Of a stretch of 45,624 nucleotides of DNA, positions 26,268 to 44,615 are shown in pieces. The stretch lies in UHGV virus genome UHGV-0133287, one strand, 5' to 3'. This stretch comes from a virus. Position numbers and translations under genes: made by a program. The stretch's first letter is position 1. Each line of letters starts with the position of its first letter. A model generated the notes under the pieces. The model was given only the letters and a program-made list of their open reading frames with translations. It did no database searches and was not told where the DNA came from.

Positions 26268-26343
26268 TGGTGGCCCCTACCGGATTTGAACCGATGACCG
26301 TGCGATTATGAGTCGCCTGCTCTAACCACTGAGCTAAGGGGCC
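26268..26343 (-). tRNA. tRNA with CAU anticodon (Met or lysidine-type Ile2)
   Basis: 76-nt minus-strand sequence GGCCCCTTAGCTCAGTGGTTAGAGCAGGCGACTCATAATCGCACGGTCATCGGTTCAAATCCGGTAGGGGCCACCA folds by hand into a cloverleaf: 7-bp acceptor stem, GCTC/GAGC D-stem, CUCAUAA anticodon loop, TTCAAAT T-loop, encoded CCA. The 5' half resembles E. coli ileX as I recall it. Confidence 0.8.
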
Positions 26344-34975: not shown

Positions 34976-35093
34976 ACCACGATATGTGGTATTAAAACCA
35001 CATATCGTGAGTTTTTCAATGGGCGAAACAAAAAATAACCTTCTATTTGTGGTCCACCTCTCGTCTTACCATGTGAAAACCACTAAATGTGGT
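34976..35093. promoter_or_regulatory. immunity operator cluster (ACCAC-N5-GTGGT)
   Basis: In the 174-bp divergent intergenic region: accacgatatgtggt (34976-34990), accacatatcgtga (34997-35010), inverted gtggtccacc (about 35048-35057), accactaaatgtggt (35079-35093). A fourth site accacattttgtggt lies at 35830-35844. Confidence 0.55.
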
Positions 35094-35130: not shown

Positions 35131-35787
35131 ATGAAAAGCAACGACGAGAACATCAAGAAAGAAATAGGTCTGCGCATTCAGACTCTACGGAAACAATCCG
35201 GCATGACTGCCGGAGATCTCCAGCAAGTCACTGGAATAGGCTTAAGCACCTTGCAGAACTATGAGGCCGGATTAAGACAACCATCTATACCTGCCATCAA
35301 GAAAATCGCGCACGCCCTAAAAGCATCAGCGCCTTACATCGCGTGCTTAACAGATAACCCGTTCCCACCCCAGAATACTAACGCTCCTGTTATTCCTGGG
35401 CTTGTAGCTATAAAAAATGACATAGCATCGCACGCCGGAGAAAAGCCTGTGCTGGCGATAGAACAGGAGATTTTACGAAGCAAGAACATCAACCCATCGT
35501 CTCTGTCAGTTCTCCAGAGCAACGATGAGTTAATGTCACCAACAATATCCCCTGGCTCCCAAGTCCTGATTAATACAGACGATACAGAGATTCATGAGGG
35601 GATCTATGCCCTTGAAGACAGAAATGGCCTAGTTGTTTTGAGGCACTGTAGAGTCATACCGGGTGACAATGCTGTTATGCTGTCAACCGAAAGGGATGCT
35701 GAAATGAACACTAAGCATCTGAATAACGAGGAATTTAAGCGTTATAAAGTTCTTGGCCGCGTAGTTAGTGTTGTCAACTGGTTATGA
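35131..35787 (+). CDS. CI-like repressor (HTH-XRE plus S24 LexA-like peptidase domain)
   Basis: 218-aa ORF with an N-terminal HTH (LRKQSGMTAGDLQQVTGIGLSTLQNYEAG) and a C-terminal S24-like domain. Confidence 0.75.
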   Translation: MKSNDENIKKEIGLRIQTLRKQSGMTAGDLQQVTGIGLSTLQNYEAGLRQPSIPAIKKIAHALKASAPYIACLTDNPFPPQNTNAPVIPGLVAIKNDIASHAGEKPVLAIEQEILRSKNINPSSLSVLQSNDELMSPTISPGSQVLINTDDTEIHEGIYALEDRNGLVVLRHCRVIPGDNAVMLSTERDAEMNTKHLNNEEFKRYKVLGRVVSVVNWL

Positions 35788-35879
35788 TACACAGCACGGC
35801 GGAAGCCGTGCATTTCTACGCTCAAAAAAACCACATTTTGTGGTTTTGACAACATGTAAAAGTATAAAAGAGGCTACGC

Positions 35880-36254: not shown

Positions 36255-36389
36255 CTGCAAGCGGGCTAACGCCCGCTTATATGATTATAGATTTATATAA
36301 TTATATAAAACGCTTTTCATCCGCCAAAAAGTTGGTTATGCTTACCTCGTTCTATAAATATAGATTTATAGAATTATATAATCAAACAC

Positions 36390-37562: not shown

Positions 37563-37586
37563 ATAAAAAAGGCCCCCGAAGGGGCC
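37563..37586 (-). terminator. intrinsic terminator (minus-strand; convergent transcription stop)
   Basis: GGCCCC-CGAA-GGGGCC hairpin preceded on the plus strand by an A run, giving a U run on the minus strand. Confidence 0.45.
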
Positions 37587-38456
37587 TAATCGCTACTTGC
37601 TGCTAATGTTTATCGTCACATTCAGAGCGTTATCAGTAATCTTCCAACCCTCCCCATGTGGCGTAAACAAAGCTCCAGTAACAACGATAAAAATACACAT
37701 ACAGTATTTTTTCATTGTGTGGCCCTTACAGGCCGTTTCACGGCATCTCCACCGACGAAAATGACGCGAGAGCAAGCACTCCGCTTGTGCTTGCGTGTAC
37801 GGCAAGTGGATGATCCTTTCCTTAAAGTCGGTGCCCGGGTGCGAATCGGCGAAAAGGCCCCAAGCCATATTACACGTCCTCGCCTTCATAATGAAGGAAT
37901 AACAATTGCTTTTATTACATGTAATTACATCCGAAGAAGTTAAAAAACTTCATTCTGCATGAACTAAGGAACTAAATTTCTTTATATGAATAGTGGACTA
38001 TTCACCTCAGTTGAGTAAGAATAGATACGCCGCTTGTGCTTGCGTGGTTGTTTACACAACGACGTTATGCTGAAAGGACCGCGAATCCGATCAGCACGAA
38101 AGAACCGTCCTCAATAGGGCGGTTTTTTTGTTTCTGCCTACCAATAAACCCACGCTATGTGGTTGTCTCTGTTAAAATCCCGCCGTATTGACATGAATGC
38201 GCCATTGGTGGACACTTTCCGAGCCGTAGCAAAATCTACGGTCGGGATTGGCGTCCCGATTGCACAATGGCGCATACCGCGTTAGCGGTTTTTTTATGCG
38301 TAAAGCACTGCTACACCCGAATTATGGTGGGGCGTGCGGGGGCGGAGAAATCCGCGCCGGTTTGTCATTGTGCCGGTTACGCCAACCCTGTACGTCTCAC
38401 CACCATATTGATTGGCGTCATTGGTGGTGATAGTTCCTTTAATCGGAGATATCACA

Positions 38457-38648
38457 ATGACAAACCTACCCCATGACTATTACGTCAACCTCGTAAAGAT
38501 CCTTCTCAAGAAAGCCTCATATGCCGATAAATTCCGCCTGGCTGAAATCATCGAGCGCGAAGCTATGCGCATCGCCAGCAACGATAACGCTGTTTCTGAC
38601 GCAAAAATCTCCCTCGTAACCAAAGTAGTTATGGGAGGTGCAAAATGA
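38457..38648 (+). CDS. small ORF translationally coupled to antirepressor (icd-like position)
   Basis: 63-aa ORF (ATG 38457, GGAG RBS) whose stop overlaps the start of the next gene (ATGA); the ORF track shows a longer version starting 38412. Confidence 0.35.
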   Translation: MTNLPHDYYVNLVKILLKKASYADKFRLAEIIEREAMRIASNDNAVSDAKISLVTKVVMGGAK

Positions 38649-39787
38649 AAACGCTTCCGACCGTTAACACCCTACAGCCTATCCTGCATAACCAGATCCC
38701 CGTTATCACTAGTGAACTTCTGGCGCAGTTATACGGAACAAAAATCAAAAACATTTCTGATAACTTTCTGAACAACACGACGCGATTCGTAGCCGGAAAG
38801 CATTACTTTAAAATTGAAAAAAACGAATTACGCGAGTTCAAGAACAGACCCGAAACAATCGGGTTAGTTGGTAAAAATGCCCGCTCCCTAATTCTCTGGA
38901 CCGAACGCGGGGCTGCACGTCACGCTAAAATGCTCGAAACCGATCAGGCGTGGGATGTATTCGAACGGCTGGAAGACTGCTATTTCAGCCAGAACGCGCA
39001 AACGGCCGCGACCGTAACCGTCTCGCCAAACAATGCTCGTGAGGTTGTCGATACGCTCAACGCCAAACCGATGTTTTACATTAAGGTGTGCAATAACGAG
39101 CCACTCACAACCTCAGCCGATGTTGCCCAGGCATTCAGCACCACAAACAATTCCATCGTTATGGCCATCGATGCGTTACGCATTCCTCGCACAGCTGCGG
39201 CGCGTCATTTCTTTAAAGAGCAACGACCGTTGGAAGGAAGCGACCGCGAAATAACAATCTATCGCATGACAAAAGACGGATTTACCTTGCTCATGGAGAG
39301 CATCGACGGTCCCGGCGTGAAAGATATCAAGCTGGCCTACATTGAAGCCTTTAACGCTATCAGCAGCGTGTTAAAAACACAGTACGAGCGCGATCTGGCT
39401 AAACGACTGTACCAGGAAAAAACGATTATCCGCGCGGCAACAGAGCATAATCGGCTATTAACGGAACCGAACTACAGGAAGGAACTAATCAAGGAGTTTG
39501 ACAAGGCAACAGGGAAAACCAAAGCGGCGCTAAATCTGCCAGCAATGACTCAGGAAAATGTGATATCAGCCTTACTTCTTGATCTACTCAGAAACGCCAG
39601 AGCACTTATCAGCTTTGACGAAAACCTGAATCCTCAACTCAAGCTACTACCACCGACAGGCAAAGTAGTCGACCAGGCTGATCACAACAGCATACTCAGC
39701 GTACTGGATGCAAACCTGCCAACCAGGACACTACAGGATCTGATAAAAACATGTGCTGATAAGCTGGCACAGAAAAGCAGACCATAA
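38645..39787 (+). CDS. putative antirepressor / phage regulatory protein
   Basis: 380-aa ORF whose N-terminal ~110 aa (ITSELLAQLYG...GAARHAKMLETDQAWDVFERLEDCYF) resembles anti-repressor N-domains; preceded by an about 700-bp structured leader. Confidence 0.45.
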   Translation: MKTLPTVNTLQPILHNQIPVITSELLAQLYGTKIKNISDNFLNNTTRFVAGKHYFKIEKNELREFKNRPETIGLVGKNARSLILWTERGAARHAKMLETDQAWDVFERLEDCYFSQNAQTAATVTVSPNNAREVVDTLNAKPMFYIKVCNNEPLTTSADVAQAFSTTNNSIVMAIDALRIPRTAAARHFFKEQRPLEGSDREITIYRMTKDGFTLLMESIDGPGVKDIKLAYIEAFNAISSVLKTQYERDLAKRLYQEKTIIRAATEHNRLLTEPNYRKELIKEFDKATGKTKAALNLPAMTQENVISALLLDLLRNARALISFDENLNPQLKLLPPTGKVVDQADHNSILSVLDANLPTRTLQDLIKTCADKLAQKSRP

Positions 39788-41313: not shown

Positions 41314-41430
41314 CGGGTTATCTCCGGTTTAACCAGGGCGGGTATCGCTCGGTTTCGGGTATAACCATAGGAAATTTTTTCCCACCTGTAAAGCACTTTT
41401 TATATAAATCTATAATTATATAATTCTATG
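41314..41430 (-). promoter_or_regulatory. conserved promoter/leader cassette, copy C
   Basis: Near-identical to copies A and B, including the identical RBS/start context of copy A. Confidence 0.5.
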
Positions 41431-44598: not shown

Positions 44599-44615
44599 AA
44601 CCACGTTACGTGGTT
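44599..44615. promoter_or_regulatory. 17-bp palindrome upstream of repA
   Basis: AACCACGT-T-ACGTGGTT perfect inverted repeat in the repA promoter-proximal region. Confidence 0.3.

Follow-up and report, generated by a model that had tools for sequence, protein, structure and literature searches.

Two adjoining RNA control modules of known kinds upstream of the antirepressor gene of an E. coli phage-plasmid

The roughly 740 bases upstream of a small ORF and an antirepressor gene (ant) in the viral genome UHGV-0133287 were originally predicted to form one long structured leader exerting RNA-based control over ant. Our analysis of the whole 45,624-nucleotide stretch (the window) leads us to conclude, with considerable confidence, that this "leader" is instead two independent, already described RNA control modules adjoining on an E. 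coli phage-plasmid, and what identifies them is family membership, structure, complementarity and covariation. The host element is an E. coli phage-plasmid of ~46 kb: the window carries a phage-plasmid gene set (repA, parA, a CI-like repressor, terminase and portal) and is 90-100% identical to ~60 E. coli plasmids (46-52 kb) and three Yersinia phages. Both modules are ordinary in kind and are unannotated in the public records of this plasmid family, where the annotation of the 1.29-kb gap is empty.

Each sequence feature listed in the original prediction was checked against the sequence and found at its coordinates; it is their assembly into a single leader that does not stand. The left 570 bases (37565-38133) form a separate divergent toxin-antitoxin module, and the real ant leader is ~234 nt long (38223-38456). 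The 17-nt repeat and the first terminator, both ascribed to ant control, belong to timP/TimR, and the "tandem terminators" are the ends of two different sRNAs. The region is laid out as follows.

37565-38133, ryfA/timP on minus and TimR-like sRNA on plus: module A, a timP/TimR type I toxin-antitoxin pair
38150-38466 plus two ORFs, plus strand: module B, a P1 immI-type switch

A single cis-acting leader of ~740 nt, in which the repeats and two tandem attenuators jointly control ant, is hardly credible given this layout. All of the elements do lie upstream of the ant pair, and the TimR-like sRNA, IsrK and ant share a strand, so that, in principle, transcription running past the first terminator could continue into the ant leader. 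However, the left part makes up a whole ryfA/timP-TimR module whose toxin gene runs on the opposite strand, a conserved promoter precedes IsrK, and IsrK-C4-ant occurs without timPR in other phages. In related plasmids the modules are also split by an insertion of 806 bp, which carries an HTH gene in the opposite orientation and falls precisely after the first terminator and before the IsrK promoter region; the modules on either side of it are 94.0% and 91.6% identical to the window.

The features of the left-hand toxin-antitoxin module are these.

37565..37862, minus: ryfA/timP toxin mRNA, 5' end at 37862, intrinsic terminator at 37570-37587
37593..37715, minus: TimP-like small toxin ORF of 40 aa by translation, MKKYCMCIFIVVTGALFTPHGEGWKITDNALNVTINISSK
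37778..37797, minus: TimR-binding site in the timP 5' UTR (copy 1 of the 17-nt repeat), a 19/20 direct repeat
37867..37872, minus: putative timP -10 element TAATAT, read by eye, 5 nt upstream of the Rfam-defined 5' end
37994..38022, plus: putative TimR promoter, TGGACT-17-nt spacer-AAGAAT, read from the sequence
38029..38133, plus: TimR-like antitoxin sRNA, 5' seed at 38029-38046 (copy 2 of the 17-nt repeat), terminator at 38104-38133

The minus strand matches the Rfam family RF00126 (ryfA) over the full model (1-296) with 135.5 bits against a gathering score of 80, and the terminator of the putative toxin mRNA (AGGCCCCTTCGGGGGCCT and a T-run) was called by a terminator scan. With hydrophobic proteins of roughly 38-41 aa as the criterion for TimP, the 40-aa ORF aligns end to end (1-40/40) with the NCBIfam model NF040796, toxic_TimP, at 23 bits and E 7e-5, under the cutoff of 45. 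The peptide can be aligned with the chromosomal E. coli TimP (MKIRCFCIVLIVSGALLT...), the product of a homologue that bears the name timP in RefSeq, and it keeps the N-terminal pattern MK..C.CI..IV.GAL.T common to E. coli TimP.

RyfA has been proposed to be a non-coding regulatory sRNA in UPEC/APEC, which would make the 40-aa ORF incidental. Published papers do, by their titles, describe RyfA phenotypes in stress resistance and virulence, and the peptide scores under the NCBIfam cutoff. Nevertheless, we regard this explanation as quite improbable here, as the ORF is intact and nearly identical across related plasmids whose ryfA region differs by up to ~6% in nucleotides, the TimP N-terminal pattern is retained, and the presence of an antisense partner whose complementarity covaries is the hallmark of type I toxin-antitoxin pairs.

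That complementarity is what the 17-nt repeat represents. The repeat, CCGCTTGTGCTTGCGTG, is exact at 37781-37797 and 38030-38046, widens to 19/20 identity (37778-37797 vs 38027-38046), and has only these two matches in the 45.6-kb window even when 3 mismatches are allowed (0.11 expected). Although described as a direct repeat, it is the TimR:timP pairing site. The published TimR carries at its 5' end an 18-nt complementarity to the timP 5' UTR and is a divergent sRNA followed by an intrinsic terminator (PMC7667032), and the plasmid site occupies the same position in the timP 5' UTR as the published 18-nt site (PMC7667032). The pairing sequence covaries: where the plasmid has CCGCUUGUGCUUGCGUG, the E. 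coli chromosome has CACUGUGGGGUGCCUGC, and plasmid-to-plasmid differences keep the pairing via G-U.

The TimR-like sRNA (105 nt) folds at -43.3 kcal/mol (z -4.7) with a mostly unpaired 5' end and a terminal hairpin followed by a U-run, and its body is homologous to the chromosomal TimR. The first hairpin-plus-T7 element noticed originally (38104-38133) is real and is this terminal hairpin, homologous to the chromosomal TimR terminator, although a simple terminator scan missed it. The putative TimR promoter has the position equivalent to that of TTGACA-17-GAGTAT upstream of chromosomal TimR. In Rfam, the TimR-like sRNA has no family, with only sub-threshold matches at chance level (RNAI at 26.8 bits, and Phe_leader). 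A whole-RNA duplex fold of TimR against the timP UTR gave no signal over shuffles (z +0.7), which is uninformative because long sequences always find spurious duplexes; the evidence is the exact 17-nt match.

By these features, the minus strand would produce the structured ryfA/timP mRNA coding for a 40-aa hydrophobic toxin, while the plus strand would produce the divergent ~105-nt sRNA whose 5' end (exact over 17 nt, 19/20 over 20) may pair with the timP 5' UTR and, by analogy with Salmonella TimR, block toxin translation. The toxicity of the peptide is likewise predicted from homologues, and on a plasmid-prophage the pair would most likely be an addiction or stabilisation module.

The module shares with the enterobacterial timP/TimR (ryfA/ryfB; Andresen et al. 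2020; PMC7667032, PMC11228461, PMC13000454) a full-length ryfA covariance-model match, a putative TimP-like hydrophobic ORF of roughly 40 aa with a conserved N-terminus, and a divergent upstream sRNA with 17-20 nt of complementarity at the same place in the 5' UTR and then an intrinsic terminator. In contrast to the known pair at the chromosomal sseA-sseB locus, the copy in the window is on a mobile phage-plasmid, its predicted toxin is divergent (23 bits vs the cutoff of 45), and the pair is unannotated in every record examined. A mobile timP was seen only in the phage-plasmid family of the window and was not found in other phages or plasmid types, and we found no description of timPR on a mobile element in the literature searched. 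Since the plasmid pairing sequence differs from that of the host, the pair is probably orthogonal to the host copy.

To the right of this toxin-antitoxin module lies the second one, with the following features.

38150..38162, no strand: operator-like palindrome CCACGCTATGTGG, one of six CCAC-N5-GTGG sites
38170..38178, plus: putative P2 promoter, extended -10 TGT TAAAAT, read by eye with the scan silent
38188..38216, plus: IsrK/C4 operon promoter, TTGACA-17-nt spacer-GACACT, by positional homology
38223..38295, plus: IsrK-type sRNA, the a1/b1 leader, terminator at 38276-38295
38248-38254, plus: a1 TTGGCGT, in a hairpin loop, 7/7 with a'
38262-38269, plus: b1 GCACAATG, pairs with b' over 8 nt
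38320..38407, plus: C4 antisense RNA gene, Rfam RF01695
~38326-38404, plus: mature C4 by homology to P1 (P1 coordinates from the NC_005856 annotation)
38359-38372, plus: b' loop GGUUUGUCAUUGUG, the loop of C4 hairpin 2
38379-38385, plus: a' ACGCCAA, single-stranded in C4
38397..38430, plus: alternative hairpin of the C4 3' strand UCACCACCA with UGGUGGUGA, 9-bp arms, loop presenting a2
38412-38418, plus: a2 TTGGCGT, 7/7 complementary to a'
38445..38466, plus: small-ORF translation start, RBS GGAGA at 38445-38449, ATG at 38457
38453-38466, plus: b2 target CACAATGACAAACC, covering the ATG, 14/14 with the b' loop
38457..38648, plus: 63-aa leader ORF, positional equivalent of P1 icd
38645..39787, plus: antirepressor gene, 380 aa, Pfam ORF6N at 73.8 bits and Phage_pRha at 47.5 bits

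RNA control of ant in the style of either P1 c4/icd/ant or P22 sar had been suggested, and of these the P1 type is upheld, with an Rfam C4 match at 38320-38407 and recognition sequences that match the translation-start sites. RF01695 is matched along its whole model (1-87) with 75.2 bits, against a gathering score of 45. The complementary antisense element that the original prediction could not locate is C4 itself, on the same strand and inside the leader between the GATTGGCGTC repeats (which are a1 and a2), as in P1. In contrast, the P22 comparison is not supported. P22 sar likewise represses ant by antisense pairing, but it is an opposite-strand transcript that crosses the ant RBS, and we obtained no Rfam sar match at E <= 5 and no promoter-like or terminator-like site on the minus strand across the RBS in a scan of 38400-38500.

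The predicted C4 RNA (38326-38404) folds as the family consensus does, with a long closing stem and two hairpins, the b' loop UUUGUCAUUG in hairpin 2 and UUACGCCA unpaired; the minimum-free-energy structure equals the centroid at -47.3 kcal/mol (z -5.2). Beyond the features listed originally, the b' loop and b2 make up a perfect 14-nt inverted repeat (38359-38372 / 38453-38466). In the whole window b2 is the best duplex partner of b' (-22.3 kcal/mol) and b1 is in the top five (-20.9), and b' pairs with b2 in the minimum-free-energy fold of the read-through transcript. Regulation of the neighbouring timP by C4 was considered and rejected; the b' loop matches the timP start region (CACAAUGAAAAA) at 11/12 positions, but this duplex reaches only -12.4 kcal/mol and ranks ~3159 of 30396 windows, and CACAAUGA is also ancestral in chromosomal timP.

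The short repeats that were listed originally differ in their weight. The two copies of GATTGGCGTC, exact at 38246-38255 and 38410-38419, contain a1 and a2, each 7/7 complementary to a' of C4. By count alone GATTGGCGTC is within chance (57/100 shuffles give at least 3 matches at <= 1 mismatch), and its meaning comes from its position and covariation. The 9-bp-stem hairpin has arms at 38397-38405 and 38422-38430 that are 100% complementary, and a GGTGGTGA box follows a2 in all aligned loci. The weakest of the listed items is CATTGGTGG, whose copies at 38204-38212 and 38420-38428 belong to a 12/13 repeat (38199-38211 / 38415-38427); chance alone would give ~0.4 such pairs in 1.2 kb. Its first copy lies in the IsrK promoter spacer and is therefore probably outside the main transcript. 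Also in this spacer is the left arm of an 11-nt inverted repeat (38197-38207 / 38265-38275), which would be transcribed only from the putative upstream promoter. As a conserved helix this inverted repeat was rejected, being confined to the plasmid family of the window.

Immediately upstream of C4, the Rfam family RF01394 (isrK) matches 38223-38295 with 67.3 bits (gathering score 50), Rho-independent terminator included. The second hairpin-plus-T7 element noticed originally is borne out: ACCGCGTTAGCGGT and then T7, at 38276-38295, was called by the terminator scan and is the 3' hairpin of the IsrK covariance-model match. The model RF03163 (c4-a1b1), at 38210-38262, falls just short of its gathering score of 46.7 with 41.7 bits. 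IsrK ends ~25 nt before C4, as in every locus with an isrK match, and its trans-activation and Hfq binding are predicted from its family only.

A promoter TTGAC(A)-17-TATATT/TACACT stands at the same place before the IsrK +1 in other loci, including Gifsy-1, where the IsrK transcription start has been mapped (PMC4825925). In the window the -10 element (GACACT) is weak and was not called by the promoter scan; indeed, the sigma-70 scan called none of the three proposed promoters (0/3), which rest on positional homology or on reading by eye. An upstream promoter P2 is weakly suggested by its extended -10. The palindrome at 38150-38162 would overlap the -35 region of this putative P2, just as in P1 the operator Oc4 overlaps P2c4, a promoter 40 bp upstream of P1c4 (NC_005856 annotation). 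The motif CCAC-N5-GTGG (AAAACCAC-N5-GTGGTTTT) occurs six times in the window against 0.3 expected, a number reached in 0/100 shuffles; all six sites are intergenic (6/6), and three of them flank the CI-like repressor gene (35131-35787). We consider them candidate operators that the repressor may bind.

Downstream, the 63-aa ORF matches phrog_7886 (function unassigned there) over its full length, falls into none of the Pfam or NCBIfam families and does not resemble P1 Icd, and its stop overlaps the ant start as ATGA (38645-38648), as in P1 icd/ant1. The antirepressor matches phrog_8244 and many anti-repressor PHROGs and has no similarity to P1 Ant1. Since neither the small ORF nor Ant is homologous to Icd or Ant1, the cargo is analogous rather than orthologous.

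The P1/P7 immI region (P51a/P51b, a1 b1, c4, a2 b2, icd, ant1/2; Citron and Schuster 1990) nonetheless agrees with the window in the order and strand of all RNA elements, and the P1 annotation (NC_005856) gives the order a1, b1, C4, a2, b2, icd, ant1 with similar spacings. Also alike are the C4 fold with b' in the hairpin-2 loop and a' single-stranded, an a2 that begins a few nt after the C4 3' end, a b2 at the point where translation begins in a small ORF whose end shares ATGA with the antirepressor gene, and a and b sequences that vary between elements and act as specificity determinants; a repressor operator over the upstream promoter is possibly another likeness. In contrast, the a and b sequences themselves differ, a small ORF other than Icd and an ORF6N-Rha antirepressor stand in the places of Icd and Ant1/2, and the master repressor is a CI/LexA-like HTH protein in the window and C1 in P1. 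The b2 of the window forms a 14-nt duplex over the AUG, whereas that of P1 covers 8 nt over the Shine-Dalgarno; most homologues, like P1, have b2 on the Shine-Dalgarno, and the window has it on the start codon.

The Gifsy-1 isrK-orf45-anrP region (Hershko-Shalev et al. 2016, PMC4825925) has the identical a allele, TTGGCGT/ACGCCAA, and likewise has IsrK and a terminator immediately upstream of a C4-family RNA and needs read-through for downstream antirepressor expression. There, the mutants G28A/C162U and G31A/C159U disrupted and then restored repression (PMC4825925), and the pairs G28-C162 and G31-C159 map onto a1:a' of the window's own allele. Unlike the window, where a 63-aa ORF intervenes, Gifsy-1 lacks a separate small ORF and has its b2 right on the anrP Shine-Dalgarno, and orf45 is a reading frame through C4; moreover, Gifsy-1 is a lambdoid prophage with this region downstream of Q, and the window is a phage-plasmid. 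The CI RNA of P4 (seqA/seqC) resembles C4 as a processed same-strand RNA with complementary sites on either side, and the IsrK authors themselves likened IsrK to seqA; P4 CI, however, acts by transcription termination, whereas C4 blocks translation.

Support for the recognition sites comes from their covariation across 19-21 loci. The 15 further phage loci scanned (15/15), Gifsy-1 and a related plasmid all have isrK and then C4 at constant spacing, while in P1 the C4 and c4-a1b1 models reach their gathering scores and isrK stays under its threshold (35.1 bits). Among 21 loci there are 11 a' alleles, and in a fixed register a1:a' is 7/7 in 20/21, as is a2:a' (7/7 in 20/21). Cross-allele pairing has a mean of 4.2-4.7 of 7 and reaches 7/7 in 1/110 cross pairs, and at least 3 Watson-Crick pair types were seen at 5/7 a-site positions. 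Each of 18 distinct b' loops has its own matching b2 and b1, with a non-self b2 match equal to or better than the self match in 14/342 comparisons. Within the plasmid family of the window itself there are three a alleles (a' ACGCCAA, GUUCCAA and AGGCUAA) with triple compensation (a1, a' and a2) in otherwise invariant flanks. We are therefore fairly sure that the a and b sequences are specificity (heteroimmunity) determinants.

Such compensation also weighs against the modules being decaying, non-functional remnants carried passively by the plasmid. The 1.29-kb gap is blank in public annotation and ant is an annotated pseudogene in one near-identical plasmid, as a remnant might lead one to expect; however, with full-length covariance-model matches, triple compensatory changes at a1, a' and a2 within the plasmid family, TimR:timP complementarity exact over 17 nt and the ORFs of the region intact in the window, we hold decay to be extremely unlikely.

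Putting these elements together on the model of the homologues, transcription would start at ~38223, and most transcripts would stop at the IsrK terminator, giving a 73-nt IsrK RNA with a1 and b1. The transcripts that read through would contain C4, and by homology with P1, RNase P and other processing would release a stable ~79-nt RNA; RNase P is known to process the C4 of P1/P7 (Hartmann et al. 1995). Within the precursor (in cis) or once processed (in trans), C4 may then bind a2, just beyond its own 3' end, through its a' segment, and b2, which covers the ATG of the 63-aa ORF, through its b' loop, and this pairing would prevent translation of the 63-aa ORF and of the ATGA-coupled antirepressor. 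With ant translation blocked, the CI-like repressor, the presumed target of Ant by homology, would stay active and lysogeny would be kept. Since IsrK has the same a1/b1 sequences, it could titrate C4 and switch ant on; for Gifsy-1, IsrK has been shown experimentally to switch on downstream expression (PMC4825925).

A purely cis-acting version of the immI-like part would dispense with processed C4: the C4 segment would mask the start region, IsrK would open it in trans, and orf45-like translation would deliver ribosomes. The Gifsy-1 authors proposed such a cis structural switch with orf45 translation through C4 and no trans-acting C4 (PMC4825925), and their data are read in this manner in the structure A/B model (PMC4825925). 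In agreement with it, when 38223-38470 is folded to its minimum free energy (-102.9 kcal/mol, z -4.8), b' and b2 are base-paired within the one molecule, and so are the C4 3' strand and GGUGGUGA. The window also has an open orf45-like frame of 50 aa (38324-38476; Pfam Phage_ASH, 29.6 bits). However, this frame stops within C4 in four loci (sister plasmid, 8 aa; P1, 14; PhiR12_2, 14; phiv142-3, 3), and hence it is no conserved requirement and was rejected as a coding feature kept across loci. Furthermore, the C4 of P1 is a trans-acting immunity repressor processed by RNase P, a processed ~80-nt species (STnc1160) arises from read-through in Salmonella, and the a/b diversity among near-identical plasmids is what would be expected from selection on trans-acting immunity specificity. 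As such, we judge the purely cis-acting version to be unlikely.

Returning to a C4 that may act after processing, we tentatively propose, at somewhat less than even chances for the proposal as a whole, a self-contained three-RNA ant switch in which attenuated IsrK is a decoy, an anti-antisense RNA, for the co-transcribed C4 and the ratio of terminated to read-through transcripts sets the antirepressor level. Under this proposal the orf45 of Gifsy-1 would be the C4 gene itself, the at least three a1/a'/a2 alleles would be mutually heteroimmune types, and the orthogonal mobile timPR would be an addiction module. IsrK and C4 have been treated as separate systems in the literature searched. On our reading, the Salmonella literature on IsrK and the P1 literature on C4 describe two halves of one module.

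No new principle is involved, as the mechanisms are already established in P1, Gifsy-1 and Salmonella. What the analysis provides is the content of a 1.29-kb blank in ~60 E. coli phage-plasmids and three Yersinia phages, filled with four RNA genes and one predicted toxin gene. It also supplies an example of timP/TimR on a mobile element with a pairing sequence unlike the chromosomal one, which bears on how type I pairs avoid cross-talk. Finally, a P1-style antisense immunity circuit appears to control induction in a widespread plasmid-prophage family, and which relatives can share a cell, or superinfect it, may depend on the allelic specificity sites of this circuit.

An Rfam scan of the window at curated thresholds gave three matches inside or touching positions 37713-38456, the interval read in the original prediction as one long leader of the antirepressor gene (ant), and a more permissive scan added a fourth:

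37565-37862, minus strand: ryfA, 135.5 bits (gathering score 80)
38223-38295, plus strand: isrK, 67.3 bits (gathering score 50)
38320-38407, plus strand: C4 antisense RNA, 75.2 bits (gathering score 45)
38210-38262: c4-a1b1 (model for the a1 and b1 sites that C4 targets), 41.7 bits, below its gathering score of 46.7 (permissive scan)

The supposed leader is therefore a set of known RNA genes rather than a single element. The features first named in it were nonetheless all found, at the same coordinates or a few bases off. The 17-mer CCGCTTGTGCTTGCGTG occurs in two exact copies (19/20 identity when extended), and no third match was found anywhere in the window with up to three mismatches allowed (0.11 expected). 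The 10-mer GATTGGCGTC also has two exact copies, a copy number unremarkable on its own, and both hairpin-plus-T-run elements and the 9-bp hairpin at 38397-38430 are real. The CATTGGTGG pair is present as part of a 12/13 repeat, but that repeat is near chance level. An additional feature is a perfect 14-nt inverted repeat (38359-38372 with 38453-38466), the second arm of which spans the start codon of the small ORF.

The ryfA gene is the mRNA of a small toxic inner-membrane protein, TimP, whose repressor RNA, TimR, is encoded divergently upstream (PMC7667032). The 5' end of TimR pairs with 18 nt of the timP 5' UTR and its 3' end is an intrinsic terminator, a rule which homologues in other enterobacteria also obey (PMC7667032), and TimR binding breaks a pseudoknot required for translation initiation (PMC11228461; PMC13000454). 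Point by point, 37565-38133 of the window fits this definition. Inside the ryfA match lies the following:

37715 to 37593, minus strand: TimP-like ORF of 40 aa, MKKYCMCIFIVVTGALFTPHGEGWKITDNALNVTINISSK

The N-terminal pattern of this ORF is shared with E. coli TimP (MKIRCFCIVLIVSGALLT...), and it aligns end to end with the NCBIfam model toxic_TimP at 23 bits, below the cutoff of 45. Copy 1 of the 17-nt repeat falls within the 5' UTR of the ryfA/timP mRNA, and copy 2, on the plus strand where its transcript is complementary to the timP mRNA, forms the first bases of a predicted RNA of ~105 nt that ends at the first of the two hairpin-plus-T-run elements. This RNA is predicted to fold with a largely unpaired 5' end (-43.3 kcal/mol, z -4.7), and its body is visibly homologous to chromosomal TimR. 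The pairing sequence covaries, being CCGCUUGUGCUUGCGUG in both partners in the plasmid and CACUGUGGGGUGCCUGC in both partners, at the same position, in the E. coli chromosome; two differences seen in this site among plasmid relatives both keep the pairing through G-U. The 17-nt repeat, which had been assigned to the control of ant, is thus the antitoxin-toxin interaction site of a timP/TimR module, and is unconnected with ant. This mobile timP variant was seen in 59 plasmids and three phages, all of this one plasmid/phage family, and is never annotated, while chromosomal timP is annotated in RefSeq. We infer a role for timPR in stabilisation of the plasmid-prophage.

The remainder of the interval has the anatomy of the P1 immI switch. 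In the P1 record the order is promoters P2c4 and P1c4, a1, b1, C4 RNA, a2, b2, icd and ant1, with P2c4, overlain by the C1 operator Oc4, located 40 bp upstream of the constitutive P1c4. P1 a1 is TTGACAG and b1 is GTTAGTGC; a2 starts 4 nt past the annotated C4 3' end, b2 lies on the icd Shine-Dalgarno sequence, and icd and ant1 overlap as ATGA. Within P1 C4, b' (UCACUAAC) is the loop of hairpin 2 and a' (CUGUCAA) is the single-stranded segment that follows. The window C4 folds as the family consensus does (-47.3 kcal/mol, z -5.2), with b' in the hairpin-2 loop within GGUUUGUCAUUGUG (38359-38372) and a' (ACGCCAA, 38379-38385) unpaired, and the sites matching these segments are as follows:

38248-38254, plus strand: a1, TTGGCGT, in the loop of the second IsrK hairpin
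38262-38269, plus strand: b1, GCACAATG
38412-38418, plus strand: a2, TTGGCGT (core of GATTGGCGTC), 8 nt past the predicted mature C4 3' end (...CCACC, 38404)
38453-38466, plus strand: b2, CACAATGACAAACC, a perfect 14-nt complement of b' spanning the ATG at 38457

Across the whole window, the best duplex partner of b' is b2 (-22.3 kcal/mol), with b1 in the top five; targeting of the timP start codon by C4 was also considered and was rejected on duplex energy. The 9-bp hairpin proves to be the C4 3' strand paired with a conserved GGUGGUGA box, which comes after a2 in every locus compared, and it displays a2 in its loop. Downstream, the 63-aa ORF and the 380-aa antirepressor gene overlap as ATGA, and the antirepressor has ORF6N and Phage_pRha domains along with many matches to anti-repressor PHROGs. 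In contrast to P1, b2 lies on the AUG rather than on the Shine-Dalgarno sequence and forms a longer duplex, and neither the small ORF nor Ant is related to its P1 counterpart (Icd and Ant1, respectively). The proposal of P1 c4-type RNA control of the antirepressor is thus upheld by the C4 match and its matching a2/b2 sites, and the complementary antisense element that had been reported missing is C4 itself, a same-strand RNA encoded between the two GATTGGCGTC copies. A P22 sar-type control from the opposite strand, the other arrangement put forward, was rejected on the promoter/terminator and Rfam scans.

An 11-nt perfect inverted repeat (38197-38207 and 38265-38275; ATGCGCCATTG and CAATGGCGCAT) encloses both IsrK hairpins and overlaps b1. 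Because its left arm falls in the spacer of the IsrK promoter, only the use of an upstream promoter would place that arm in RNA; the repeat is kept across the plasmid family and is not found in other phages, and it was rejected as a conserved helix.

To compare this arrangement more widely, we fetched 15 diverse phage loci, including P1, a distant member, from the 289 phage records (for the most part Stx and other lambdoid phages) in which a sensitive search found the IsrK-C4 region. C4 is present in 15/15, and a gathering-level isrK match lies ~25 nt upstream in all but P1, where C4 and c4-a1b1 reach gathering level and isrK matches weakly (35 bits) over the a1/b1 leader. Gifsy-1 and the plasmid of E. 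coli ATCC 25922, scanned separately, have the same isrK-C4 pair. Across loci the C4 stems are conserved, in contrast to a hypervariable b' loop and a' segment. The 21 loci have 11 a' alleles between them, and in a fixed register a' pairs 7/7 with its own a1 in 20/21 loci and with its own a2, which always starts 4-10 nt past the ...CCACC end, also in 20/21. Pairing across alleles averages 4.2-4.7 of 7 and reaches 7/7 in just one of 110 combinations, and five of the seven positions show at least three Watson-Crick pair types. Similarly, each of 18 distinct b' loops has its own matching b2 and b1; the b2 matches are 6-14 nt long and lie on a Shine-Dalgarno sequence or start codon, and a non-self b2 does as well as or better than the self b2 in only 14/342 comparisons. 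Even within the plasmid family there are three a alleles with triple compensation and otherwise invariant flanks.

Compensated a alleles in the plasmid family
Window: a' ACGCCAA, a1 TTGGCGT, a2 TTGGCGT
ATCC 25922 plasmid and AR_0067 plasmid: a' GTTCCAA, a1 TTGGAAC, a2 TTGGAAC
pGPT24-02-C: a' AGGCTAA, a1 TTAGCCT, a2 TTAGCCT

This is the pattern that would be expected of a functional immunity-specificity determinant, like that between P1 and P7. Phage PPyecE_EH1910 (locus L017, 151-339 and 807-995) carries a tandem pair of IsrK-C4 modules separated by 656 bp, each 5' of its own ORF and with different a and b alleles (CTGCGAA vs ACGCCAA), i.e., two immunity specificities in one genome. In PhiR47_1, SfV, and mEp460 (loci L013 521-1669, L015 521-1357, and L019 475-1626), a CDS annotated as "Rha" or "transcriptional regulator" crosses IsrK and C4; the likely true start comes after b2 and the Shine-Dalgarno sequence, and the annotated starts are therefore probably too far upstream.

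Experimental work on Gifsy-1, whose a allele is identical to that of the window, provides an anchor for this pairing. There, IsrK mutations G28A and G31A release anrP from repression, and C162U and C159U bring back the inactive conformation (PMC4825925). G28 and G31 map to a1 (+26 to +32) and C159 and C162 to a' (+158 to +164), pairing exactly as G28-C162 and G31-C159. In addition, the start of Gifsy-1 "orf45" (+107) is an AUG within AUUAUGGUGG, the 5' end of the C4 match. The mapping and the position of orf45 together identify IsrK as the a1/b1 leader of the C4 module. Gifsy-1 IsrK stops at its own terminator while a fraction of transcripts reads through to downstream genes, an ~80-nt RNA, STnc1160, is processed from the read-through transcript, and IsrK in trans raises anrP translation ~140-fold (PMC4825925); the simplest reading of this trans-activation is that IsrK titrates a' and b'. 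In the papers found by a literature search, IsrK and C4 are handled as separate systems, and a preprint on APSE phages places both families in each APSE phage genome with no functional link drawn.

A conserved orf45-like coding frame through C4 was considered and rejected. The frame through the window C4 gene (38324-38476, plus strand; also L006 1018-1131 and L010 964-1137 among the comparison loci) has a 29.6-bit match to Pfam PF10554 Phage_ASH (cutoff 26). This frame is annotated in other phages as "ash family protein" or hypothetical protein, and in several homologues it is closed. The Phage_ASH family and the annotations derived from it may largely be translations of an RNA gene.

From family identity, folds, covariation, and the Gifsy-1 and P1 homologues, the following mechanism can be proposed for the window. 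Transcription would start at ~38223 from a TTGACA-17-GACACT promoter, the position of which is conserved in the loci compared, and the majority of transcripts would terminate as the 73-nt IsrK. Read-through would yield a precursor and then mature C4 (~38326-38404); for P1 C4, the maturation enzyme is RNase P. C4 would cover a2 and b2 both in trans and in cis, the latter based on the minimum-free-energy fold of the precursor, and this masking would stop initiation at the 63-aa ORF and, via ATGA coupling, at ant. Surplus IsrK would lift the block, and Ant would presumably inactivate the CI-like HTH/S24 repressor encoded at 35131-35787.

Candidate operators for that plasmid-prophage repressor are suggested by a CCAC-N5-GTGG palindrome (extended consensus AAAACCAC-N5-GTGGTTTT), which has six copies in the window (0.3 expected); a count of six is reached in 0/100 shuffles. 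All six sites are intergenic:

1323-1335, 34977-34989, 35080-35092, 35831-35843, 38150-38162, 44601-44613: CCAC-N5-GTGG

The promoter region of the CI-like gene has a site on either side, a third site comes after the gene, and another is upstream of the probable repA. The site at 38150-38162 is 26 bp 5' of the -35 of the IsrK promoter. If TGT TAAAAT (38170-38178) is an extended -10 promoter, its -35 region would overlap this site, recalling P1 Oc4 over P2c4; the promoter scan made no call at 38170-38178, and we therefore offer this overlap only as a hypothesis.

The element holding the interval is a phage-plasmid of ~46 kb. Across the timP-TimR interval the window is 99.8% identical to plasmid pGPT24-02-C (46,125 bp), which has genes for repA, parA, an XRE/CI-like repressor, terminase, portal, and holins. 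Over 1.2 kb around the finding, 67 non-mobilizable plasmids are 89-97% identical to the window, mostly 46-52 kb in size and mostly from Escherichia (four from Salmonella, one from Klebsiella), including the 48.5-kb plasmid of ATCC 25922, and three Yersinia phages are ~92-93% identical. The RefSeq annotation has no features in the 1.29 kb from the gene after parA to the small ORF. The antirepressor ORF is complete in the window (38645-39787, 380 aa, ORF6N and Rha), whereas in the annotation of its pGPT24-02-C counterpart (L022 21084-22226) a truncated ORF6N pseudogene precedes a distinct Rha-family gene. The tRNA gene at 26268-26343 (minus strand; anticodon CAT) is called tRNA-Met by ARAGORN, versus tRNA-Ile in RefSeq at the corresponding pGPT24-02-C position. 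AT-rich repeated/palindromic motifs, TTATATAAT and TATAGATTTAT, common to 36284-36380, directly upstream of parA (start 36390), and the intergenic 41398-41425, may be partition (centromere-like) or regulatory sites.

The timP/TimR and IsrK-C4 modules are independent of each other. An 806-bp insertion (L001 3139-3945), absent from the window but present in the ATCC 25922 plasmid and many relatives, falls exactly between window positions 38135 and 38146, directly after the TimR terminator and before the operator-like palindrome and IsrK operon promoter region, and carries a gene for a 190-aa HTH_3 regulator in the opposite orientation. Other phages have IsrK-C4-ant without timPR. Each of the two modules is a member of a known, curated family, and the novelty is confined to their unannotated presence in this phage-plasmid family, the mobile timPR with its own pairing sequence, the three immunity alleles inside one plasmid family, and the link between IsrK and C4 made explicit.
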